Assembly: GCA_965208105.1 (NCBI GenBank)
Contig: OZ242318.1
Coordinates: forward strand, 3,168,001 to 3,232,000
Length of the DNA stretch: 64,000 nucleotides
Reading direction: 5' to 3'
Origin: Candidatus Latescibacterota bacterium
GTDB lineage: Bacteria > Latescibacterota > UBA2968 > UBA8231
The position numbers and the translations under genes are program-made. Each line of letters opens with the position of its first letter. Positions within the stretch are counted from its first letter, which is position 1. Below the pieces are notes generated by a model. That model did no database searches. It saw only the letters and a program-made list of their open reading frames with translations, and was not told where the DNA came from. Below are positions 5,198-22,084 of the stretch, in pieces.

Positions 5198-5257
5198 CTG
5201 CGCGAAAGATTGTTATTTGATGGTCTGCGAGTGTTCGTCCGACAACAATAACTTCCC

Positions 5258-5286
5258 TTAAAGATAATTAAGGGAGAGGTTAAAAT
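5258..5286 (+). promoter_or_regulatory. putative sigma70 promoter facing the structured non-coding region
   Basis: TTAAAG-N17-TAAAAT, overlapped by the palindrome CCCTTAA-N6-TTAAGGG (5255-5274). Confidence 0.35.
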
Positions 5287-5558
5287 AGGGGCAAATGGAT
5301 GTATGCTCTTTATTTTCTGGGGGAAGGCTCAGTTTCCTGCCTGTTTTCGTCGATTTCTATCCGGATCTTACGATCCGGCCGGACCTCTCCCTACGTCGAC
5401 CTCAGTCCATGCAGAAAAGCCTTTCCCTGGTCTCAGACGAAACAAAACAGGCTTCCCGCTTTGCCTGGAGACGGAAGGTGCGTAGTACAAAGGAGGGAAA
5501 ACCGATGCACACCCCAAGAAACGACTGCCAGAGGGCTGCCAGATACAGTTTCGCAGCT

Positions 5559-5593
5559 AAAAAAGGATAGACGCAAATTTTACGTCTACCCTT
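5559..5593 (-). terminator. rho-independent terminator
   Basis: Minus strand reads AAGGGTAGACGTAAAATTTGCGTCTATCCTTTTTT: a long stem with G-U pairs followed by a U-tract, just downstream of the 27-aa ORF. Confidence 0.7.
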
Positions 5594-5615
5594 CCGGTCT
5601 GGCATCCTGCCGGAA

Positions 5616-5699
5616 TCACTTCGACTTCCAGTGATTCAGAATGATCCGAATCCCTTCCAGCGCGATCTCCAGCAGTGTGGCCAACCCTCGCGGCATCAT
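5616..5699 (-). CDS. 27-aa amphipathic peptide MMPRGLATLLEIALEGIRIILNHWKSK, type I toxin-like
   Basis: Strong SD (GGAGGGGGTGAT) ending 5 nt before the ATG, hydrophobic helix with a basic C-terminus, own terminator. Below the ORF-track size cutoff. Confidence 0.55.
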   Translation of the reverse strand: MMPRGLATLLEIALEGIRIILNHWKSK

Positions 5700-5789
5700 C
5701 AGGTATCACCCCCTCCCTGCCTCTGGATAAACCTTCGGTCTGTCCTCCATTTGATACTCCATTGCCCGGGTATGGGTCTTTCCAACCGG

Positions 5790-6450
5790 TCCACGGCTCG
5801 CCTGTGCGAGTGATCCTGAAATTCAGGTCTGAAACTCCCCGGCAAGCAAGATTCTGTCTGGGACCGGTACCAAAGGAGAGACCTTTGGTGCCCTTGAGGG
5901 TGGGCACATTGGCTACAGGTGAAGAATGTGCGAAAGCCCCAGCGCAAAGGGCCACCAGGGTCCTACCAACCTGGGAGCGATAGAGACCTCGAGCCTGAAT
6001 CGGATGCCTCGGGGAGGGGGTAGATCTCAGTACCCACCCTCGGCCGGTCATGCCCCTTGGACCTTGAAAGCCGACAGCAGTATCGCCTCCGGTGGACTTT
6101 GGACCACCACCCAAAGTACACCCGGCTGGGGATGACTTCTTGGGTCGAGAGGTGGGCCCTGCAGTGCCGGTCAATGGAGCCCACCCGATTTGGAGAAGGT
6201 CTCTACCGGCACTGCAGAGCACCACAGCGCAACCCCTGCGGGGGTGCATGAGACGGGTCTCCCGCGGAACCCTGCACTCTCCCACAGCCATTGCGCGAAG
6301 CAGACCAACGGCTTGGATCCTGTCAGGACCGGGAATTGTTTCCTTTCATCCATGGTGCCCTTTCTGGTAAGAAATGGGGGATCGGGTTTGAAGAATCTTT
6401 TTTCTGATCCGGCCCTTCCATGCCGTAGCGGGTGGACCACGGCTGTAGCG
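5790..6450. ncRNA. putative large structured RNA or ssDNA-folding element
   Basis: Dense nested inverted repeats (5866-5876/5882-5892; 5904-5910/5925-5931; 6033-6045/6143-6156; 6046-6056/6128-6137; 6089-6102/6111-6125; perfect 13-bp 6159-6171/6205-6217) and no convincing ORF. Confidence 0.4.
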
Positions 6451-6465
6451 GGGGTCTCCCTTCCC

Positions 6466-6903
6466 TTAGACCATCCCCGTTTCCTTCATGGACAGGTTTC
6501 GGTCGGGAGGAGCGACGATGATATGGTCGAGCACCTCAATCCCCACAAGGCGGCCGGCTTCGACCAGGCGGTGGGTGAGATCGATATCGTCCTTCGACGG
6601 TGACGGGTCTCCACTGGGGTGATTGTGGGAAAGTATGAGCGAACAGGCGCCCTTGAGGATAGCCGACTTGAACACTTCCCGGGGATGTACCTGCGCTGCC
6701 GTCTGGCTGCCTATCGAGGTGATTTCGTGGGCCACGACCCGGTTACGTACATCAAGGTGGAGGACGACAAACATCTCCCGGTCGGCCATTTTGATATCCA
6801 AGGTATCGAGATAGGTGGCTACGTCTCCGGGGTTCTCAACAGGTTCGGAAATTACCTCGTTCCAGACCTGTTTAACCTTGCGTTCGACTACTTCGATTTT
6901 CAT
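6466..6903 (-). CDS. radC: RadC/JAB-domain protein
   Basis: 'REMFVVLHLD', 'VHPREVF', 'HNHPSGDPSPSKDD', 'VLDHII'. ATG at 6903 with an AAGGA SD. Confidence 0.9.
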   Translation of the reverse strand: MKIEVVERKVKQVWNEVISEPVENPGDVATYLDTLDIKMADREMFVVLHLDVRNRVVAHEITSIGSQTAAQVHPREVFKSAILKGACSLILSHNHPSGDPSPSKDDIDLTHRLVEAGRLVGIEVLDHIIVAPPDRNLSMKETGMV

Positions 6904-7449
6904 GAAGAATCCTTCTTCTGAAGAAACTTCCTGGGTTTTTGATTCATTAAATTGGCCGAAATTACAGATCCACACTCCGATTCGATCAATGGCAGACGCG
7001 TCCAAACAGGTTGGGTGAGAGGTGATGAATTGCGGCACCATGGGGTGACTGGAAGTACGACTACTTTGATGTGATTTGAAGAATCAATCGGAGGAGTCCG
7101 ACAGGCAAGATGGAGAGCCTAGGTACAGCGCTTTGGGCAGCAGAGATCTCAACAGGGAGGATTGGAAAGAGCGGTTGACGGAAGGATCCTGGGTGGAGGG
7201 CTTTAGGCGGGCGCGGACCAAGTGCTATGGAGGGTGTTCAATCACCAGGTTTTGGGGGCTTACGGGACACTGGAATGCTTTCCAGGATGTTTCGGAGGGG
7301 ATCCTTGAGGAAAGTCCCGGGAAGCCTCAGATCAGTCTTCCCAATGAATCGGCTCCCATAATTATCCCGGTGGGAATTCTCAAGCCATCAGGGGGAGTTC
7401 GGGGGATATAGAGCACGTATATGGCAGCTATCAAAGCGGATAGACAAAA

Positions 7450-12693: not shown

Positions 12694-13647
12694 ATGGCAG
12701 GAAGAGAAATGGTGTCGGAGCGATTTTCCAAACAACCAAAGCTCGCCGTAGTTGACCAAGACGGCCTTCCAGATCCTCTAATTTCCGAAGAAATCGAACT
12801 CAACTATCCGTACTTCAGCACATACGCTGTTGAAGAACTGGGTTCACCGCTTATGAACGCCACATCGGCGGAGGAATTCAGGGCAGCCCACAGGTTGAAG
12901 TTGTGGGCATGGAGTCGGAGGCCAATTGGTTCATTGCCAAATAACGATACCATACTGGCCAATCTGGCCGGATCAGCATACTTCGGTAGCACAGATTTAT
13001 GGACCGAGCATAAAGACAGCATCATGCAGGAGTTCATCTTATGCAAGGACAACCGGTGGTATCATCCGAGGCTGGTGGGTTGCGCCATGTTCTGCTGGAA
13101 ACAAAAGATTGGCAAGAGCCGCGGAGGCAAAAATTCGGCCAAACAAAGAGCGGAAAAAACGGCTCGGGAAGCCGCAGGACAGGGGAGGGATCAAGATACT
13201 TGCAACAAGGAAAGTAAAGGAAATAAAAAGAAAGCTCCAAATACTATTGTAACAACCAATGATGTTGTTACGGAAAAGAAGCTCAGCAAGCGGGGTGAGT
13301 TGGATTTCGAGTCTGAGGAGGAAAAATGGATCATCACCGAACTTCGTAATCCAGAAAATTATCCTCGAGGAAATAGAGCATGGAACTGGAGATCTGCCCT
13401 GAAAGCAGTAAGAGCAAGACTGAAAGAGGAAATCTACACGGCATCGGAACTGCTGCAGTTTGCGAAGAATTATACGGTTGCATGCAAGGCCGACAAAAAA
13501 GAGCCGGGATTTATCATGATGCCATCCACATTCTTCGGTCCTAACATGCGTTTTGAACAGTATATGGAGGCCGAGCCGGAACAAGAGGAAAATCAGGTCA
13601 CGGTGCGCCGGCAAATCAACCTGAGTGAGCTCAGGAGAAACCAATAA
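12694..13647 (+). CDS. DUF1376/YdaU-like phage replication initiator
   Basis: 'AEEFRAA..L..WAW...PIGSLPNND..LANLAG', 'DNRWYHPRL', C-terminal 'YP......SA.KA..ARL', 'FIMMPSTFFGP..RFEQY'; translationally coupled to dnaB. Confidence 0.75.
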   Translation: MAGREMVSERFSKQPKLAVVDQDGLPDPLISEEIELNYPYFSTYAVEELGSPLMNATSAEEFRAAHRLKLWAWSRRPIGSLPNNDTILANLAGSAYFGSTDLWTEHKDSIMQEFILCKDNRWYHPRLVGCAMFCWKQKIGKSRGGKNSAKQRAEKTAREAAGQGRDQDTCNKESKGNKKKAPNTIVTTNDVVTEKKLSKRGELDFESEEEKWIITELRNPENYPRGNRAWNWRSALKAVRARLKEEIYTASELLQFAKNYTVACKADKKEPGFIMMPSTFFGPNMRFEQYMEAEPEQEENQVTVRRQINLSELRRNQ

Positions 13648-15017
13648 TGGCTACCAAGGAATTCAAACTCATCGCTCCTCCTCATGATAAGGAAATCGAG
13701 GAGGCCATACTCGGCTGTTGCATAATCAGTGACGAGGCGCTGTCCATGGCGATTGACAGAGGGATTGAAGATGACCATTTCTACGAAATAAACAACGGCC
13801 ATATTTTCTCGGCTCTCCATGAATGCGCTCGTCAAGGCCTGGCCAAAGATGCCGCTGTTATCACTGGCATCCTGAGGCGGCGCGGAGTCTTCGATCAGGT
13901 GGGAGGAAATCAGAGGCTGGCGACTCTGGGTAATTCTGTTGATTCTGACGCCAACATGGAGTACTACCTAAACCGCCTTGAGGACTTGTCCATGCGGCGC
14001 AAGCTCCAGGTTTTGCTCTCCAACGCAGATACCAGGGCAGACGACCAAACCGTCCCCGCCATAGAGGTTGTTGAACAAACTACCGGTGAAATGCAGCGGT
14101 TATGTGAGGGCAAGGACTCCTGCGATGGCATGGAATCCATATCGGATATCATGCGGGACGTGCCGCAATTCATTGAAGAGCGCAGGTCGGGTGCCAAAAC
14201 AGGCATTAAAACCGGCCTTGGGTCCCTCGACTACATCCTGTCGGGCGGAGGATTCGAGCCGGGTTACCACATTATTGCCGCTGGCACCTCGCAGGGAAAG
14301 AGTTCTCTGGCCTTGTGCATTGCCAGGGAGGCGGCCAGGAATGAACATTGCGTGGCCTACTTTTCTCTTGAGATGTCGAAACTGAGCCTGGTGCTACGGC
14401 TCCTGTCCATTGGCAGCGAAGTGGAGGCTACAAAGATCAAATCTGGGCGCATGGACAGGCAGGAATGGGAGAGGGTGACAGGGGAAATGGCTACTCTGTC
14501 TGATTCCAATAACCTTCATATTGACGCCACTCCCGCAATCAGTGCCGTGCAAATGCTGGCCAGGGTACAGAGGCTCAACCAGCTCAAAAAGGTGGATCTG
14601 ATTGTGGTGGACTACCTTCAGCTTATGTCTTCCCGATCCTCGGATACTCGGGAGCAGGAGGTGGCTCAGATCTCCAGGTCCCTGAAAGGCGTAAGCCAGC
14701 GCCTGAATGTGCCGCTGTTGGCCCTGAGCCAGCTATCCAGAAGTCATGAGCACCGAACGGATAGGAAGCTCAGGCTCAGTGACTTGCGCGAGTCGGGGTC
14801 GTTGGAGCAGGACGCCGATACGGTTATTTTCCTGAGCCATCCCAACAAGAACGAGGTTGATGTGAATGGCGAGGCTCTCGATGGCGTGGCCGATTTAAAT
14901 GTGGCGAAGCAGCGCGAGGGGCCCACCGGAACCGCCGTGGTTCAATGGCAGGAGGGTTTTACCAAGTTCAGGAATTTTGCCGGCCAAGAAGTCCCTTGGG
15001 ATGAGTATTTTGGATAA
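13647..15017 (+). CDS. dnaB: replicative DNA helicase (DnaB family, element-encoded)
   Basis: 'PPHD.EIEEAILG', Walker A 'AAGTSQGKS', 'FSLEMS', 'VVDYLQLM', 'LSQLSR', 'SDLRESGSLEQDAD', 'AKQREGPTG'. Confidence 0.95.
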   Translation: MATKEFKLIAPPHDKEIEEAILGCCIISDEALSMAIDRGIEDDHFYEINNGHIFSALHECARQGLAKDAAVITGILRRRGVFDQVGGNQRLATLGNSVDSDANMEYYLNRLEDLSMRRKLQVLLSNADTRADDQTVPAIEVVEQTTGEMQRLCEGKDSCDGMESISDIMRDVPQFIEERRSGAKTGIKTGLGSLDYILSGGGFEPGYHIIAAGTSQGKSSLALCIAREAARNEHCVAYFSLEMSKLSLVLRLLSIGSEVEATKIKSGRMDRQEWERVTGEMATLSDSNNLHIDATPAISAVQMLARVQRLNQLKKVDLIVVDYLQLMSSRSSDTREQEVAQISRSLKGVSQRLNVPLLALSQLSRSHEHRTDRKLRLSDLRESGSLEQDADTVIFLSHPNKNEVDVNGEALDGVADLNVAKQREGPTGTAVVQWQEGFTKFRNFAGQEVPWDEYFG

Positions 15018-15398: not shown

Positions 15399-15682
15399 CC
15401 GTGCTCTGCCTCGACATCATCAAAATCCTCCAGAATATGGATTCAGAATCCGTGGACATGGCCGAGAAAATGCTGGATGAGTGTGATATCACCGTGGACT
15501 TGGTGATCCCACAGCTGGCGCTAGCGCTGCTTGACCTTGCCCCCTTAGAGGACTCCAGGTCAAGTGTTGTTGATATGGCTTCTGGAGGGTTGGTTTTGGC
15601 ATATTTCTCGGCCAGCCGCGTCTTACTTGATTCAATAGTTCCATTAAAGTCCAAAAGGGCAAAATACTCACAGGAATTTTAG
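15395..15682 (+). CDS. hypothetical protein
   Basis: ATGA overlap with the previous ORF; 95 aa. Confidence 0.4.
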   Translation: MTVLCLDIIKILQNMDSESVDMAEKMLDECDITVDLVIPQLALALLDLAPLEDSRSSVVDMASGGLVLAYFSASRVLLDSIVPLKSKRAKYSQEF

Positions 15683-16706
15683 ACATAGGATTTTCCCAGA
15701 CCGACTTTGCGAACGGCATGACCATGTCGGCCGGTCGTTTCCCCCAATTTGGATATCCCTGATGAGGCCGCTCGAAATTGTAGCGCTCGAGCCACGCATC
15801 CAGGTCCTCCTGCAGGGCGGCCAACTGGTTGCGGGACTTCGGACGATCTGCCGTGCTCAAGAACTCGTCCATCACCGTACGGTGAAACCGCTTCACAAAC
15901 CCATGGGTCTGTGAAGATCTCTCCTTCGGCCTTCTGTGGGAGATGTTGGTTAGGGCAAGGTAGAGTTCGTAAGGATGGGAGGGCGATCCACAGTAGGTCC
16001 CGCCGTTATGGGTCAGAACGGCCTCCACCTCAAGACCCCAGCCATTGTAATGAGGAATCACCTTTTTGTGTAGAATGGCCACGGCGTGCTTGGGGGATTT
16101 GCCTGTGTGCAGATAGCCGAAGGCAAGGCTGCCATGGGTATCCACGACGGCTTGCAGGTAGACTTTGCCCACCCCCTTGAAGGTGCCGATGTAGAGGGTG
16201 TCCTGACACAGCAGTGTTGCCGGCGCCGTGGTTTCCAGGTTCCCTTCCCGGAAGCAGGGATTGATCTTCTCAAGGGCCCCCCTCTGCTCTGAGGTCAGTT
16301 CGGTCTGGGCTCCAGCGACCTTCTCTTCCAGCTTGAGCATGCGTTTATACCGGGTGCGCATCCCATTTTTGGCCAATATCTTCTGGATCGTCACTCCCGA
16401 TACCGATACACCGGTCACTAGGAGGAGATCGGACAGACGATGGCAGCCGTGGTCCGGAAACGCCACCGCCAGATCCAGAATCTGCCGGACGATCTCTGGA
16501 GGGGTGGTTTGGGGGTGTGATTTGTGGATGGGAGGCCGATCCACCAACCCTTCCAGGCCGTGGTCCTGAAAACGCCGTTTATACTGGTAGTACTGGGAGC
16601 GGCTCACCCCCAGGCGGCGGCACGCTTCCGAAACGTTCCCCAATTTTTGAGCCAACTTCAGAATCCGGAGACGTTTCCGTGCCAGCTTTTTCTCCGAATC
16701 GGTCAT
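15489..16706 (-). mobile_element. IS481-family transposase with a degenerate DDE triad
   Basis: 'LGNVSEACRRLGVSR', 'QDTLYIG.FKGVGKVYLQ.VVD', 'YNFERPHQG'. 'LTHNG' and 'HGFVKRF' replace the usual 'LTDNG' and 'NGFVERF'. Confidence 0.85.
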
Positions 16707-18770: not shown

Positions 18771-19463
18771 CTATCCGGCCACCGCCCTTCTTTCGGTAGC
18801 CGGTTCGATCTTCAACTTCTGGTATAAGAGATCCAACTGGGCCCTCTCCGTCGCCGTGGTCCCAATGCGCTGCCACGTGCCAGCCGCCCTGATCAAAGGT
18901 GCGTGGACGAGCTTGAGGCAGCTTTTTTCGTTGAAGAAGCGGGGAATGGTTTTGGTACGCCGTCGCTCTTCCACGAAACTCCGTTCAATCAGGTGGGTGG
19001 TGCGTACGTGTTTTCGATGGCGCCAGGGCACGCGCAGATGGTGGAGCAGGGCCTCCAGGTCCTCGCTGAGCGCTGTGCACAGGCTCGGACAGTCCTGGCC
19101 GAAGCGGATCAACACGTCGCTGGCGGCAGCCTCTCCCGCTTCGCGGGTGGGCGCATCTCGAATGGCCGTCAGATGCGCCTTGACCTCGGGCCAGAGATGA
19201 TCGGGCACCTTCGATTGGAAGTTGCGCATGCGATGTACCCAGCAGCGCAGGCGCCAACTGTGGTGCCACACCTGGTCGATGGCCCGCAAAAGTCCGGGGG
19301 CGCCGTCGCTGGTGATGGTCTACGGCACCGGCAGGCCCCGGCTGACCAGGTCGCGCAGGAAGGAAAGCCAGGCATCGAAGCTCTCCTTCTTGGCCAGGGT
19401 CAACGACAACAACACCTTGTCCCCCTCGGTGGTAATCGCCCAGGCACACAACACCGCTTCTTT
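18771..19463 (-). pseudogene. IS256 (Mutator) family transposase C-terminal half
   Basis: 'TSDGAPGL.RAI', 'RCWVHRMRN', 'RTTHLIERSF.E.RRRTK.I.RF.NEKSCLKLV'. In-frame TAG at 19320-19322; 5' half missing. Confidence 0.85.
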
Positions 19464-19469
19464 CTATAT

Positions 19470-19913
19470 GCCATGGTAGGTAAAACTCCAGTAGCTGGTA
19501 TCAAGGATCGGGCAACCAATGAAGTCCCAGCAAGGGTAATCGGGAAGGTCAATGCCGATACCATGCAAGGATTTGTTGGAGCAAATATCGGTGCCGAAGC
19601 TGAGCTTTTCACCGACGAAAGCTCATCCTATACTGGCATGCCAAACCATACATCCTTGAAGCATAGTACTGGGGAGTATGTCAAAGGATTGGCTCACACA
19701 AATGGAATCGGGTCATTCTGGAGTACTCTCAAGCGAGGTATAGGAGGTACATACCACCAAGTGTCGTTAAAGCACTTGGGGAGATATGTGGGAGAATTCG
19801 AGGGAAGGCACAATGCCAGAGAGGTGGCAAGCACAATTTGGTTTTCTGGAGACAATAAATACGAAAATCAAACCTTTTCTTTTGAGACTCAGGAAATAGT
19901 AAGAATACCTTAG
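19470..19913 (+). pseudogene. IS1595-family transposase C-terminal half
   Basis: 'GKTPVAGIKDRATNEV', 'LFTDESSSY', 'HSTGEYV.G.AHTNGIGSFWS.LKRGI.GTYH.VS.KHL.RYV.EF..RHN'. Confidence 0.85.
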
Positions 19914-20684: not shown

Positions 20685-21845
20685 CTATCCGAAGGAGGAA
20701 GTCGCGTGGGCGCCCCATTTTGACAATAGCTCTCGGCGTTTGGCGAGCAGATCTGACCTCGCGTAGGCTTGCTCCACGGCCGATCCGACCGAGTGGGCGA
20801 GGGACAATTCCATGACGGCGTGATCGGCGTCGGTCTGCTCGCTCGCCCAAACCCTGAAGGTGCTGCGGAGACCGTGGACCGTAGTCCGTTCGGAGAGCCC
20901 GTTGTCCCTCAGGACCTTGGTCAGCGCCATGTCACTCAACTCCTTGCCTCGCCTCGATGGTGATGGGAAGATCAGCCCGCTTCCGTCGTCGAGTTTCCGA
21001 GCCAGATTGAGGACGACCAAAGCTGGAGAGGACAGCGGAACGCGGTGCTCGGCACCGTTCTTCATTCGCCTGGCAGGGATGCGCCATTCCTGGGCATCGG
21101 AGTCGATCTCGTCCCACTTGGCGCCCCGAGCCTCACCACTCCTCGCTGCCGTTAATACCAGGAATTTGAAACACAGTTTCACCGATGGAGATGCCTCGGA
21201 TCCTTCAACGATGCCTAACGCTTCGTTGACTTCATGGTAGGGTAAAGCCCGAAGGTGTTGACTGATAGGCCTCATCGAAGGCAGAGCACCATCAATGGCC
21301 TCCCCGGCCATGTTGTGCTCAATATACCCGTGCGCCTGACACCAGCGCAGGGTGGCCTTGATGCATCTCCGCACGCGTCGCGCCGTCTCTGGCTTGATCG
21401 TCCAAATCGGGGTCAAGACGGCCAGCACGTCATCGCGTCTTATCTGGTCCACCTGCAGACCACCGAGGCGCTTGAACGCATGACGCTCCAACTGCTGCAT
21501 CCAGTTCGAGGCGACCTTAGCATTGCGCCAGCGCGGCCTGTTGGCTTCGAAGGTCGCCTGGGCAGCTTGCCGGAAGGTCGGCGTTCGGGCTCTCCGCTTT
21601 TCGGCGAGCGGATCCCCTCCGGAGCGCGCAAGCCTGCGATTTCCGAAGGCCTTGTCCCGGGCTTCCCTCAGACTGACGAGGGGATAAGCTCCCAAACCCA
21701 TGTCCCGGCGACGCCCTTTGATGGTCAGGCGCTGAATCCAGGACTTCGATCCCCCCGGAGCGACGTACAGGAACAGAGTCCCGCCATCGCCGTAGCGACC
21801 TGGCTTCAGGAGCGATTTTACCTTTGCTGCTGTAAGCTTTCCCAT
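20685..21845 (-). CDS. int: P4-like tyrosine integrase
   Basis: Arm domain 'YGDGGTLFLYV.PGGSKSW..R....RR.MGLG.YP.VSL.EAR'; catalytic R (TAARSGE), K (RMK), HGLR, LAH and Y (QAY). Confidence 0.95.
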   Translation of the reverse strand: MGKLTAAKVKSLLKPGRYGDGGTLFLYVAPGGSKSWIQRLTIKGRRRDMGLGAYPLVSLREARDKAFGNRRLARSGGDPLAEKRRARTPTFRQAAQATFEANRPRWRNAKVASNWMQQLERHAFKRLGGLQVDQIRRDDVLAVLTPIWTIKPETARRVRRCIKATLRWCQAHGYIEHNMAGEAIDGALPSMRPISQHLRALPYHEVNEALGIVEGSEASPSVKLCFKFLVLTAARSGEARGAKWDEIDSDAQEWRIPARRMKNGAEHRVPLSSPALVVLNLARKLDDGSGLIFPSPSRRGKELSDMALTKVLRDNGLSERTTVHGLRSTFRVWASEQTDADHAVMELSLAHSVGSAVEQAYARSDLLAKRRELLSKWGAHATSSFG

Positions 21846-21997: not shown

Positions 21998-22084
21998 TGG
22001 TGCCGAAGGTGGGACTCGAACCCACACGGAGTTGCCCCCACTGGATTTTGAATCCAGCGCGTCTACCAATTTCGCCACTTCGGC
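21998..22084 (-). tRNA. tRNA-Leu (anticodon CAA)
   Basis: GCCGAAGTGGCGAAATTGGTAGACGCGCTGGATTCAAAATCCAGTGGGGGCAACTCCGTGTGGGTTCGAGTCCCACCTTCGGCACCA: cloverleaf with a long variable arm and encoded CCA. Confidence 0.97.

Follow-up and report, generated by a model that had tools for sequence, protein, structure and literature searches.

The window analysed here is a 64,000-nt stretch of contig OZ242318.1 (positions 3,168,001 to 3,232,000, assembly GCA_965208105.1) from a Candidatus Latescibacterota bacterium. It carries a cassette of about 1.5 kb in which radC, a long intergenic element, a gene for a peptide of 27 amino acids (aa) and a terminator follow one another on the minus strand. The element is the subject of this report. 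An earlier note had described it as a densely base-paired non-coding region and had offered three explanations, an unclassified large non-coding RNA (ncRNA) of a mobile element, a folding origin or promoter active as single-stranded DNA (ssDNA; ssi/Frpo-like), or a long structured 5′ leader of the peptide mRNA. A new structured RNA of 650-750 nt on a mobile island from a phylum without cultured members, if true, would extend the short list of large bacterial ncRNAs without known function.

The cassette

The features of the cassette, in the order of the minus strand, are:

6903-6466, minus strand: radC, 145 aa, with a RadC-like JAB domain (Pfam PF04002, E 2.7e-39; PHROG 'DNA repair protein', 1.1e-35)
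5720-6465, minus strand: the element, a spacer or leader of ~750 nt without a gene, from the radC stop codon to the Shine-Dalgarno (SD) region of the peptide gene; non-coding, with conserved ends and a fast-evolving centre
5708-5717, minus strand: SD region GGGAGGGGGU of the peptide gene, a strong SD with a perfect 10-nt complement at 6012-6021
5699-5616, minus strand: the 27-codon peptide gene MMPRGLATLLEIALEGIRIILNHWKSK, a conserved gene 3′ of the element
5597-5559, minus strand: terminator hairpin of ~16 bp followed by a T-run, predicted by folding to close the peptide transcript; the stem is kept with two-sided changes in 10 copies from two genera

The element and both of its neighbours share one orientation, and the position of the element downstream of radC, as given in the earlier note, is borne out by the Pfam match. 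Nothing terminator-like was found on the minus strand from radC to the peptide gene, nor any promoter-like hexamer pair on either strand within 5720-6465. The element is probably co-transcribed with radC and the peptide gene. The genome contains three copies of the cassette, and the element is present in only two of them.

Folding energy of the element

Folding energies were expressed as z-scores against dinucleotide shuffles (100 for the whole element, 80 for the element without 6157-6233 and 200 for the peptide mRNA). The whole element, 5720-6465, gave a z-score of -3.64 on the minus strand, where none of the 100 shuffles was as good, and of -1.82 on the plus strand, where 4 of 100 were as good; 12 random 746-nt segments of the genome had a mean of -0.16 with a standard deviation of 1.39 and a minimum of -2.56. 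Without 6157-6233 the z-score of the remaining 669 nt was -0.9 for the minus strand, where 17 of 80 shuffles did as well, and -0.13 for the plus strand, where 31 of 80 did. Since the excess folding is lost together with this segment, a single hairpin carries the whole folding signal:

6156-6171/6205-6220, both strands: palindromic hairpin with 16-nt arms and a 33-nt loop; the arms are 94% complementary and include a perfect 13-bp stem, 6159-6171/6205-6217

The same was seen in sliding segments of 120 nt, which reached z-scores below -3 only where this hairpin was included and elsewhere in the element lay mostly between -2 and +2.6, the hairpin at 5866-5892 scoring about -2.4. The claim that pairing is denser than chance does not, therefore, hold once the hairpin is removed. 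Folding no better than that of shuffled sequence, which the earlier note had named as a finding that would tell against it, was obtained only after this removal and not for the intact minus strand.

The hairpin is also dispensable, since a near-identical metagenome contig (X6) does without it. In this contig position 6156 is joined straight to 6234, and 2 other differences were found in 193 nt (99% identical). Six letters at the joint fit either side, the motif CCCTGC being present at 6157-6162 and again at 6234-6239, and the contig has lost 6157-6233, and with it the hairpin, by deletion between short direct repeats. The evidence says that the apparent dense pairing is the chance level for a sequence of about 60% G+C plus one dispensable palindrome. 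As a by-product, the element is a clean example of one hairpin driving the folding z-score of a whole region.

Comparison of the two copies of the element

The cassette with the second copy of the element (copy 2, locus L002) matches the window at 85% identity over 5431-6349 and at 88% over 6408-6926. Identity is distributed unevenly, with 91% in 5720-5860, 81% in 5900-6030, 76% in 6030-6160, 72% in 6150-6235, 93% in 6235-6345 and 98% in 6410-6470. The centre of the element, at 68-86% identity, nears the divergence of the third codon positions of radC, 30% of which differ from copy 2. A nested domain at about 6033-6156, which had been named before and is indeed seen in plus-strand folds, is, given the low identity of the block 6030-6160, among the fastest-evolving parts; its outer helix, 6033-6039/6150-6156, is broken in copy 2 by uncompensated changes in one arm.

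For a test of the global structure we took the minimum free energy (MFE) fold of the window's own sequence, blind to copy 2, and compared the effect of the 92 substitutions with that of random placement. The substitutions broke 33 of 50 touched minus-strand pairs (null 32.3 +/- 3.5) and 33 of 55 touched plus-strand pairs (null 33.5); the substitutions of copy 2 break global-MFE pairs as often as random ones do. For confident pairs (p>=0.9) the plus strand was again no better than the null, with 12 of 19 touched pairs broken (1482/2000 and 785/2000 permutations), and on the minus strand 6 of 14 touched pairs were broken against a null of 12.2, a value reached in 31 of 2000 permutations. The preference for the minus strand is thus weak, if nominally significant, and there is none for the plus strand. 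Folding energy and pair conservation both lean towards the minus strand, contrary to the plus-strand lean suggested before.

Compensatory changes were found in 0 of the 14 touched confident pairs on the minus strand and in 1 of 19 on the plus strand, in a comparison of two sequences only and hence of low power. Copy 2, a homologue of 85% identity, shows neither a codon pattern nor a compensatory change in confident minus-strand pairs. Among the transitions in confident minus-strand pairs, 8 keep minus-strand pairing and 3 would keep only plus-strand pairing; transitions yield G.U on opposite strands in different stems, and no consistent strand emerges. A consensus of the two copies by RNAalifold contained compensatory pairs, 2 for the minus and 5 for the plus strand; this was rejected as evidence because the program picks pairs that both sequences can form.

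Cassettes without the element and distribution

The RadC proteins of copy 2 and of the third copy of the cassette (copy 3, locus L003) are 90% and 97% identical to that of the window. In copy 3, whose peptide gene is MRTRGLDILLEIALEVIRIILNRWKSK, radC and the peptide gene are separated by only ~190 nt of unrelated sequence, and in a metagenome contig (X5) the peptide gene is joined to radC via 153 other letters that replace 786. Short and unrelated spacers in both cases show that the cassette can do without the element.

In searches of 76 family genomes and 168 phylum genomes the source genome alone gave the element; none of the 75 other family genomes and none of the 167 other phylum genomes has a copy. 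The element with its flanks had no blastn match in phage and plasmid records, and an exact 22-nt pattern from it had no match in genome contigs and viral contigs. No copy stood beside a related RadC at any of 159 loci (80 from metagenomes and 79 from genomes, blastn E<=0.01), nor was the peptide gene found beside them (best tblastn E 0.57), the metagenome loci being those of RadCs only 43-59% identical, from unrelated organisms. Parts of the element were, however, present in contigs of four other metagenome studies, sponge and marine, with runs labelled sponge metagenome; one run alone accounted for 73 contigs, and none of the runs listed was from RNA. In X5 the centre, 5971-6214, was covered far less than the flanks at 80% likeness; this fits a hypervariable centre, contig depth being a poor measure. 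Parts of the stretch without contig cover in X5 to X8 were not counted as evidence.

Rfam returned only a tRNA (22001-22084) for the whole window at the gathering threshold. For 5200-7100, at E up to 10, there were six chance matches of 11-20 bits against thresholds of 40-110, and there was none for copy 2, copy 3 and one locus of a genome from another genus of the family (G032) at E up to 1. The earlier note, which could not recognise a tRNA, tmRNA, RNase P, group II domain V or hammerhead core here, agrees with these scans. A miniature inverted-repeat (MITE) or other non-autonomous transposable element was also considered and rejected: the boundaries have no inverted repeat, and there are only two copies, both between radC and the peptide gene.

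Interpretation of the element

Neither a large structured RNA nor an ssDNA element finds support, because the excess folding is that of one dispensable palindrome, because the paralogues show no covariation and because the cassette exists without the element. We consider it probable, with modest confidence, that the element is a transcribed spacer or leader that evolves fast and contains a few local hairpins, and that it is not a large, discrete structured RNA. In this reading a small mobile cassette has the element as its non-coding intergenic leader, which would act only as a transcribed spacer. The conserved ends of the element would be ordinary local signals, namely a hairpin on the 3′ side of radC and, before the peptide gene, the region of leader or ribosome entry. 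The central ~300 nt would drift almost neutrally, with hairpins that come and go by slippage and fold-back (template-switch) mutation. Such a mutational origin of the hairpins can be inferred from the large palindrome in copy 2, where a 17-nt insertion in the loop and two substitutions give a new perfect 8-bp distal stem. Fold-back template switching in quasi-palindromes can create such stems without selection, and the distal stem is consistent with it.

Two of the three explanations offered earlier are not upheld. For an unclassified large ncRNA we found no Rfam match, no copy in 167 other genomes of the phylum, no compensatory change in a confident minus-strand pair, and shuffle-level folding without the hairpin. 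For an ssi/Frpo-like ssDNA origin or promoter we found no promoter-like hexamer pair, no iterons and no recognised conjugation genes among the island ORFs scanned, and the only strong hairpin is absent from the 99%-identical variant. The third, a 5′ leader of the peptide mRNA, stands as far as position is concerned (same strand, directly upstream of the SD, no terminator between) and receives a weak minus-strand signal (38/2000, see below), but not as a leader that the cassette needs, as the spacers of ~190 nt in copy 3 and 153 nt in the contig demonstrate. The element should not go forward as an ncRNA candidate.

Several observations weigh against a mere spacer. The intact minus strand outfolds all 100 shuffles and all 12 background segments. 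The arms of the palindrome keep 31 of 32 positions in copy 2 in surroundings that are 72-76% identical, for which binomial arithmetic gives a chance of ~0.001. At 90-98% identity to copy 2 the flanks exceed the radC coding sequence next to them (76-92%), a pattern suggestive of constraint or of recent gene conversion. Insertions and deletions (indels) delete or lengthen entire hairpins, as in real structured RNAs. Against permutation of the substitutions within blocks of 100 nt, confident minus-strand pairs were both hit and broken less often, with 6 broken against 11.9 +/- 2.6 (38/2000), a signal that weakens to 118/2000 without the big hairpin. Finally, the power to detect covariation is low, with only two full copies compared.

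The peptide gene and a possible regulatory leader

The peptide gene is conserved more widely than the element. We counted 13 copies, 3 in the source genome, 7 in G032 and 3 in G026; the latter two genomes belong to another genus of the same family, and none of the other 165 phylum genomes searched has the gene. Between the genera a serine codon changes from TCG to AGC and a lysine to arginine, which argues for protein-level selection on the peptide reading frame. An amphipathic pattern and a polar stripe (E11/E15/R18/N22) can be read straight from the sequence. Neither Pfam nor NCBIfam has a family for the peptide or for the two proteins described next, and a degenerate pattern of the peptide gene had no match in viral contigs.

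In G032 the gene is the last of an array consisting of an IS1595 transposase gene, orfA (69 aa), orfB (~130 aa, with one hydrophobic helix) and the peptide gene; the repeats are 82-97% identical, and the peptide start overlaps the orfB stop (ATGA). G026 has orfA, orfB and the peptide gene at one locus, orfB and the peptide gene at a second, and at a third a solitary peptide gene next to another transposase. It is tempting to speculate that this could be a toxin-like or membrane-active micropeptide module. In any case the conserved 27-aa gene with its compact mRNA is a better target than the spacer.

The most serious alternative starts from this gene. The element could be a lineage-specific regulatory leader on the minus strand, whose C-rich tracts would occlude the G-rich SD, so that a possibly toxic, TisB-like amphipathic peptide would stay untranslated until processing of the leader, in the manner of type I toxin mRNAs. 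We regard this as unlikely, though well worth weighing. The minus-strand z-score of the element, the confident minus-strand pairs that are broken less often than expected, the conserved flanks and the polar stripe of the peptide all point in this direction. So does the peptide mRNA itself (5555-5725, minus strand), which is compact (z -5.16, 200 shuffles); in a consensus fold over 10 copies of the gene both SD and AUG are paired with the coding region, and 5 of 42 pairs, including those of the terminal hairpin, show two-sided changes. Moreover, 9 of the 10 pairs between the SD and its perfect complement at 6012-6021 survive in copy 2. However, 1.6 kb of sequence should contain about one perfect 10-mer inverted repeat by chance (arithmetic), and the predicted partner of the SD differs between copies. 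In base-pair probabilities for the window's transcript from the radC stop to the terminator the SD has several partners, none above p=0.39; for copy 2 another C-rich site is its predicted partner (p=0.99), and in copy 3 it is mostly free. An anti-SD pairing of 6012-6021 with 5708-5717 accordingly stays a speculation within this alternative, its predicted partner not being conserved between the copies. The same peptide gene stands behind short unrelated spacers in copy 3 and in the X5 contig, and in G032 and G026 it is translationally coupled to an upstream protein gene without any leader. No antisense RNA gene or promoter was found, including a plus-strand promoter-like site overlapping the peptide gene, and the element has no excess folding without its hairpin. 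A more far-reaching version, in which a leader RNA of ~750 nt, confined to this lineage, with hairpins in its conserved ends and a hypervariable centre, would gate the TisB-like 27-aa peptide of an undescribed IS1595/radC-cassette module in sponge-associated Latescibacterota, we consider distinctly unlikely.

The palindrome as a possible DNA site

It is also conceivable that the palindrome at 6156-6220 acts as DNA, as a protein-binding or cruciform/ssDNA site in recombination, replication priming or as an operator, the rest of the element being filler. We give this little weight. The conservation of the arms in a variable neighbourhood, described above, is one of primary sequence and not covariation, and with DNA parameters the hairpin folds equally strongly on both strands (z -5.25 and -5.55). 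Perfect inverted repeats of at least 13 bp with loops up to 60 nt are rare, 69 in the 4.85-Mb genome including this one, which makes the hairpin uncommon but not unique. In addition, a replication-initiator-like protein, a DnaB helicase and an integrase are encoded on the island itself. Against a DNA site speak the deletion of the palindrome in a near-identical strain, its distance of 6.5 kb from the replication genes and the existence of a third cassette without the element. Iterons were found nowhere in the element, and an AT-rich stretch or promoter-like hexamers nearby, or such hexamers inside the hairpin, were not found either. The hairpin is not followed by a U-run on either strand.

Coding potential and the possibility of a gene relic

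The open reading frames (ORFs) that overlap the element had been taken for noise, and this is confirmed. In the frame of the largest, a minus-strand ORF of 244 aa (5557-6291), the substitutions relative to copy 2 fall on the three codon phases as 22/29/31, compared with 10/3/44 in radC. The element differs from copy 2 by 11 indels of 1, 1, 2, 1, 1, 2, 3, 17, 2, 1 and 58 nt, and only the 3-nt one is in frame; no reading frame is kept between the two copies of the element. A phmmer search of the 244-aa ORF against 1.84 billion representative proteins returned the ORF itself and two short spurious matches, one to a low-complexity stretch of 31 residues and one of 42 residues to an alternative frame over the peptide gene. 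Judged by these patterns the ORF is noise and the interval 5720-6465 non-coding.

Non-coding sequence could still descend from coding sequence, and the element might be the decayed relic of protein-coding passenger genes, for example of an orfA-orfB pair; to this we attach somewhat less weight again than to a DNA site. In G032 (7 copies) and G026, orfA (69 aa) and orfB (~100-150 aa) precede the peptide gene in the same position of ~700 nt, and the near-neutral rate and frameshifting indels of the element's centre would fit a decaying gene. An open frame of ~88 codons running up to the peptide start is even kept in both copies, although 9 amino acids differ in the best-conserved part. On the other hand, hidden Markov models of orfA and orfB missed all six frames of both copies (best E 0.68 to 1.2, 18 sequences), tblastn with orfB found nothing on the element, the 244-aa ORF has no real homologue among the proteins searched, and the flanks are too conserved for a dead gene.

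As to copy 3, a minus-strand frame of its spacer (L003, ~1650-1740) gave a faint match to the C-terminal part of orfB from G032 (E 0.061 among 18 sequences); copy 3 may keep an orfB relic.

A plus-strand ncRNA antisense to the radC-peptide transcript is very improbable: the transition 6163/6213 in the big hairpin and the imperfect position of 5866-5892 are G.U on that strand, and the nested domain 6033-6156 is predicted there, but the z-score of -1.82 lies inside the genome background, 12 of 19 touched confident pairs do not survive in copy 2, which is no improvement on the null, and promoter-like sites of the plus strand were found neither within the element nor immediately upstream of it.

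Other hairpins and segments of the element

Apart from the palindrome, the spacer contains the following features:

5866-5876/5882-5892, both strands: 11-bp hairpin with a 5-nt loop; DNA z-scores of -4.30 and -3.69
6227-6296, minus strand: hairpin domain of ~70 nt predicted with high probability, with five helices at p>=0.9, in a block conserved at 90-92%
6422-6443, minus strand: 7-bp hairpin immediately behind radC, within the block of highest conservation (94-98%)
6350-6407: 58-nt segment missing in copy 2, including a 19-nt near-copy of sequence upstream of radC

The element is made of several short hairpins and not of one long one, and the stems named in the earlier note exist: the perfect 13-bp stem, the hairpin at 5866-5892 and, in folds, the nested domain. 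The hairpin at 5866-5892 has a G.U/C.A position of its own that favours the plus strand, and a change in copy 2 that favours the minus strand. In the domain 6227-6296 all 3 pairs changed in copy 2 are kept as G-U or G-C on the minus strand, which is not significant. The hairpin behind radC shows one change from G.U to G-C in copy 2 and, taken alone, has a z-score of -1.12, no better than shuffles. Within the 58-nt segment, 6389-6407 forms a 19-nt direct repeat with 6903-6921, just 5′ of the radC start (89% identical).

Genomic context

The region 5′ of radC (6904-7354) lies within a repeat common to copy 3 (85% over 6473-7354). It includes a plus-strand ORF of 111 aa (7076-7411), a candidate only, for which no family was matched. 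Beyond the other end of the cassette, a convergent plus-strand ORF of 21 codons (5505-5570) with a strong AAGGAGG SD ends at the shared hairpin. It is not conserved, its frame being shifted in copy 2 and its SD lost in copy 3, and is probably no gene; the stretch 5445-5560 is nevertheless 92-98% identical to copy 2.

Pfam and PHROG scans of the ORFs indicate that positions 1-22000 of the window resemble an integrated element. A tyrosine integrase of the P4 type (20685-21845, minus strand) adjoins the tRNA gene 22001-22084. Further ORFs encode a DUF1376-like replication initiator (12694-13647), a DnaB helicase (13647-15017), a P63C protein and transposases of the IS481-like (15489-16706) and IS1595 (18903-19913) types. 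Pieces of the island recur at several places in the genome with 73-95% identity. Phage structural genes were not recognised in 1-22084, where many ORFs are without a family, and relaxase or type IV secretion genes were not found among the scanned ORFs of 1-22000, several of which have no family. Among these same ORFs there was no reverse transcriptase, TnpB/IscB or IntI-type gene, and a retron, a diversity-generating retroelement (DGR), an IscB/TnpB guide RNA and an integron attC site were dropped as candidates.

Comparison with known systems

GOLLD, ROOL, OLE and HEARO are large ncRNAs borne by prophages or islands; their function is unknown and all of them are in Rfam. The element falls into the same size class of 600-800 nt and lies in an integrated element beside a tRNA-linked integrase. 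It differs from them in having no Rfam match (E up to 10), no covariation, no conservation beyond one genome and no excess folding without one hairpin.

Rfam also includes the radC RNA motif, which is reportedly a short element in the 5′ untranslated region upstream of radC. An association with radC genes of mobile elements is common to that motif (Weinberg et al. 2010, PMC2864571) and our element. The element, however, lies downstream of radC, is ~750 nt long and gave no match to the motif in the Rfam scan.

With type I toxin mRNAs the cassette shares a gene for a small amphipathic peptide (27 aa, <30 aa) downstream of the element, a compact peptide mRNA in which SD and AUG are paired, a C-rich complement of the SD in the leader, and the occurrence of the peptide gene in many copies on mobile elements. 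A small hydrophobic or amphipathic peptide of <60 aa is characteristic of these toxins, and the 27-aa ORF, with 13 copies in 3 genomes, is of this kind. Long structured leaders are known from tisB/istR-1, zorO and hok. Unlike in these systems, an antitoxin RNA was not found, the leader is missing from the majority of peptide-gene copies, the SD partner differs between the two copies, and elsewhere the peptide gene is coupled to an upstream gene.

Intergenic regions of operons with hairpins of the repetitive extragenic palindromic (REP) or bacterial interspersed mosaic element (BIME) type, which stabilise the upstream mRNA, offer a further comparison. At ~750 nt the element is far longer than REP units, and it is not a dispersed family, its two copies having the same cassette context. 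Like these regions, it is non-coding, lies between co-oriented genes and has a few strong local hairpins; its presence and length vary between copies of the cassette, and its hairpins are lost or gained as units.

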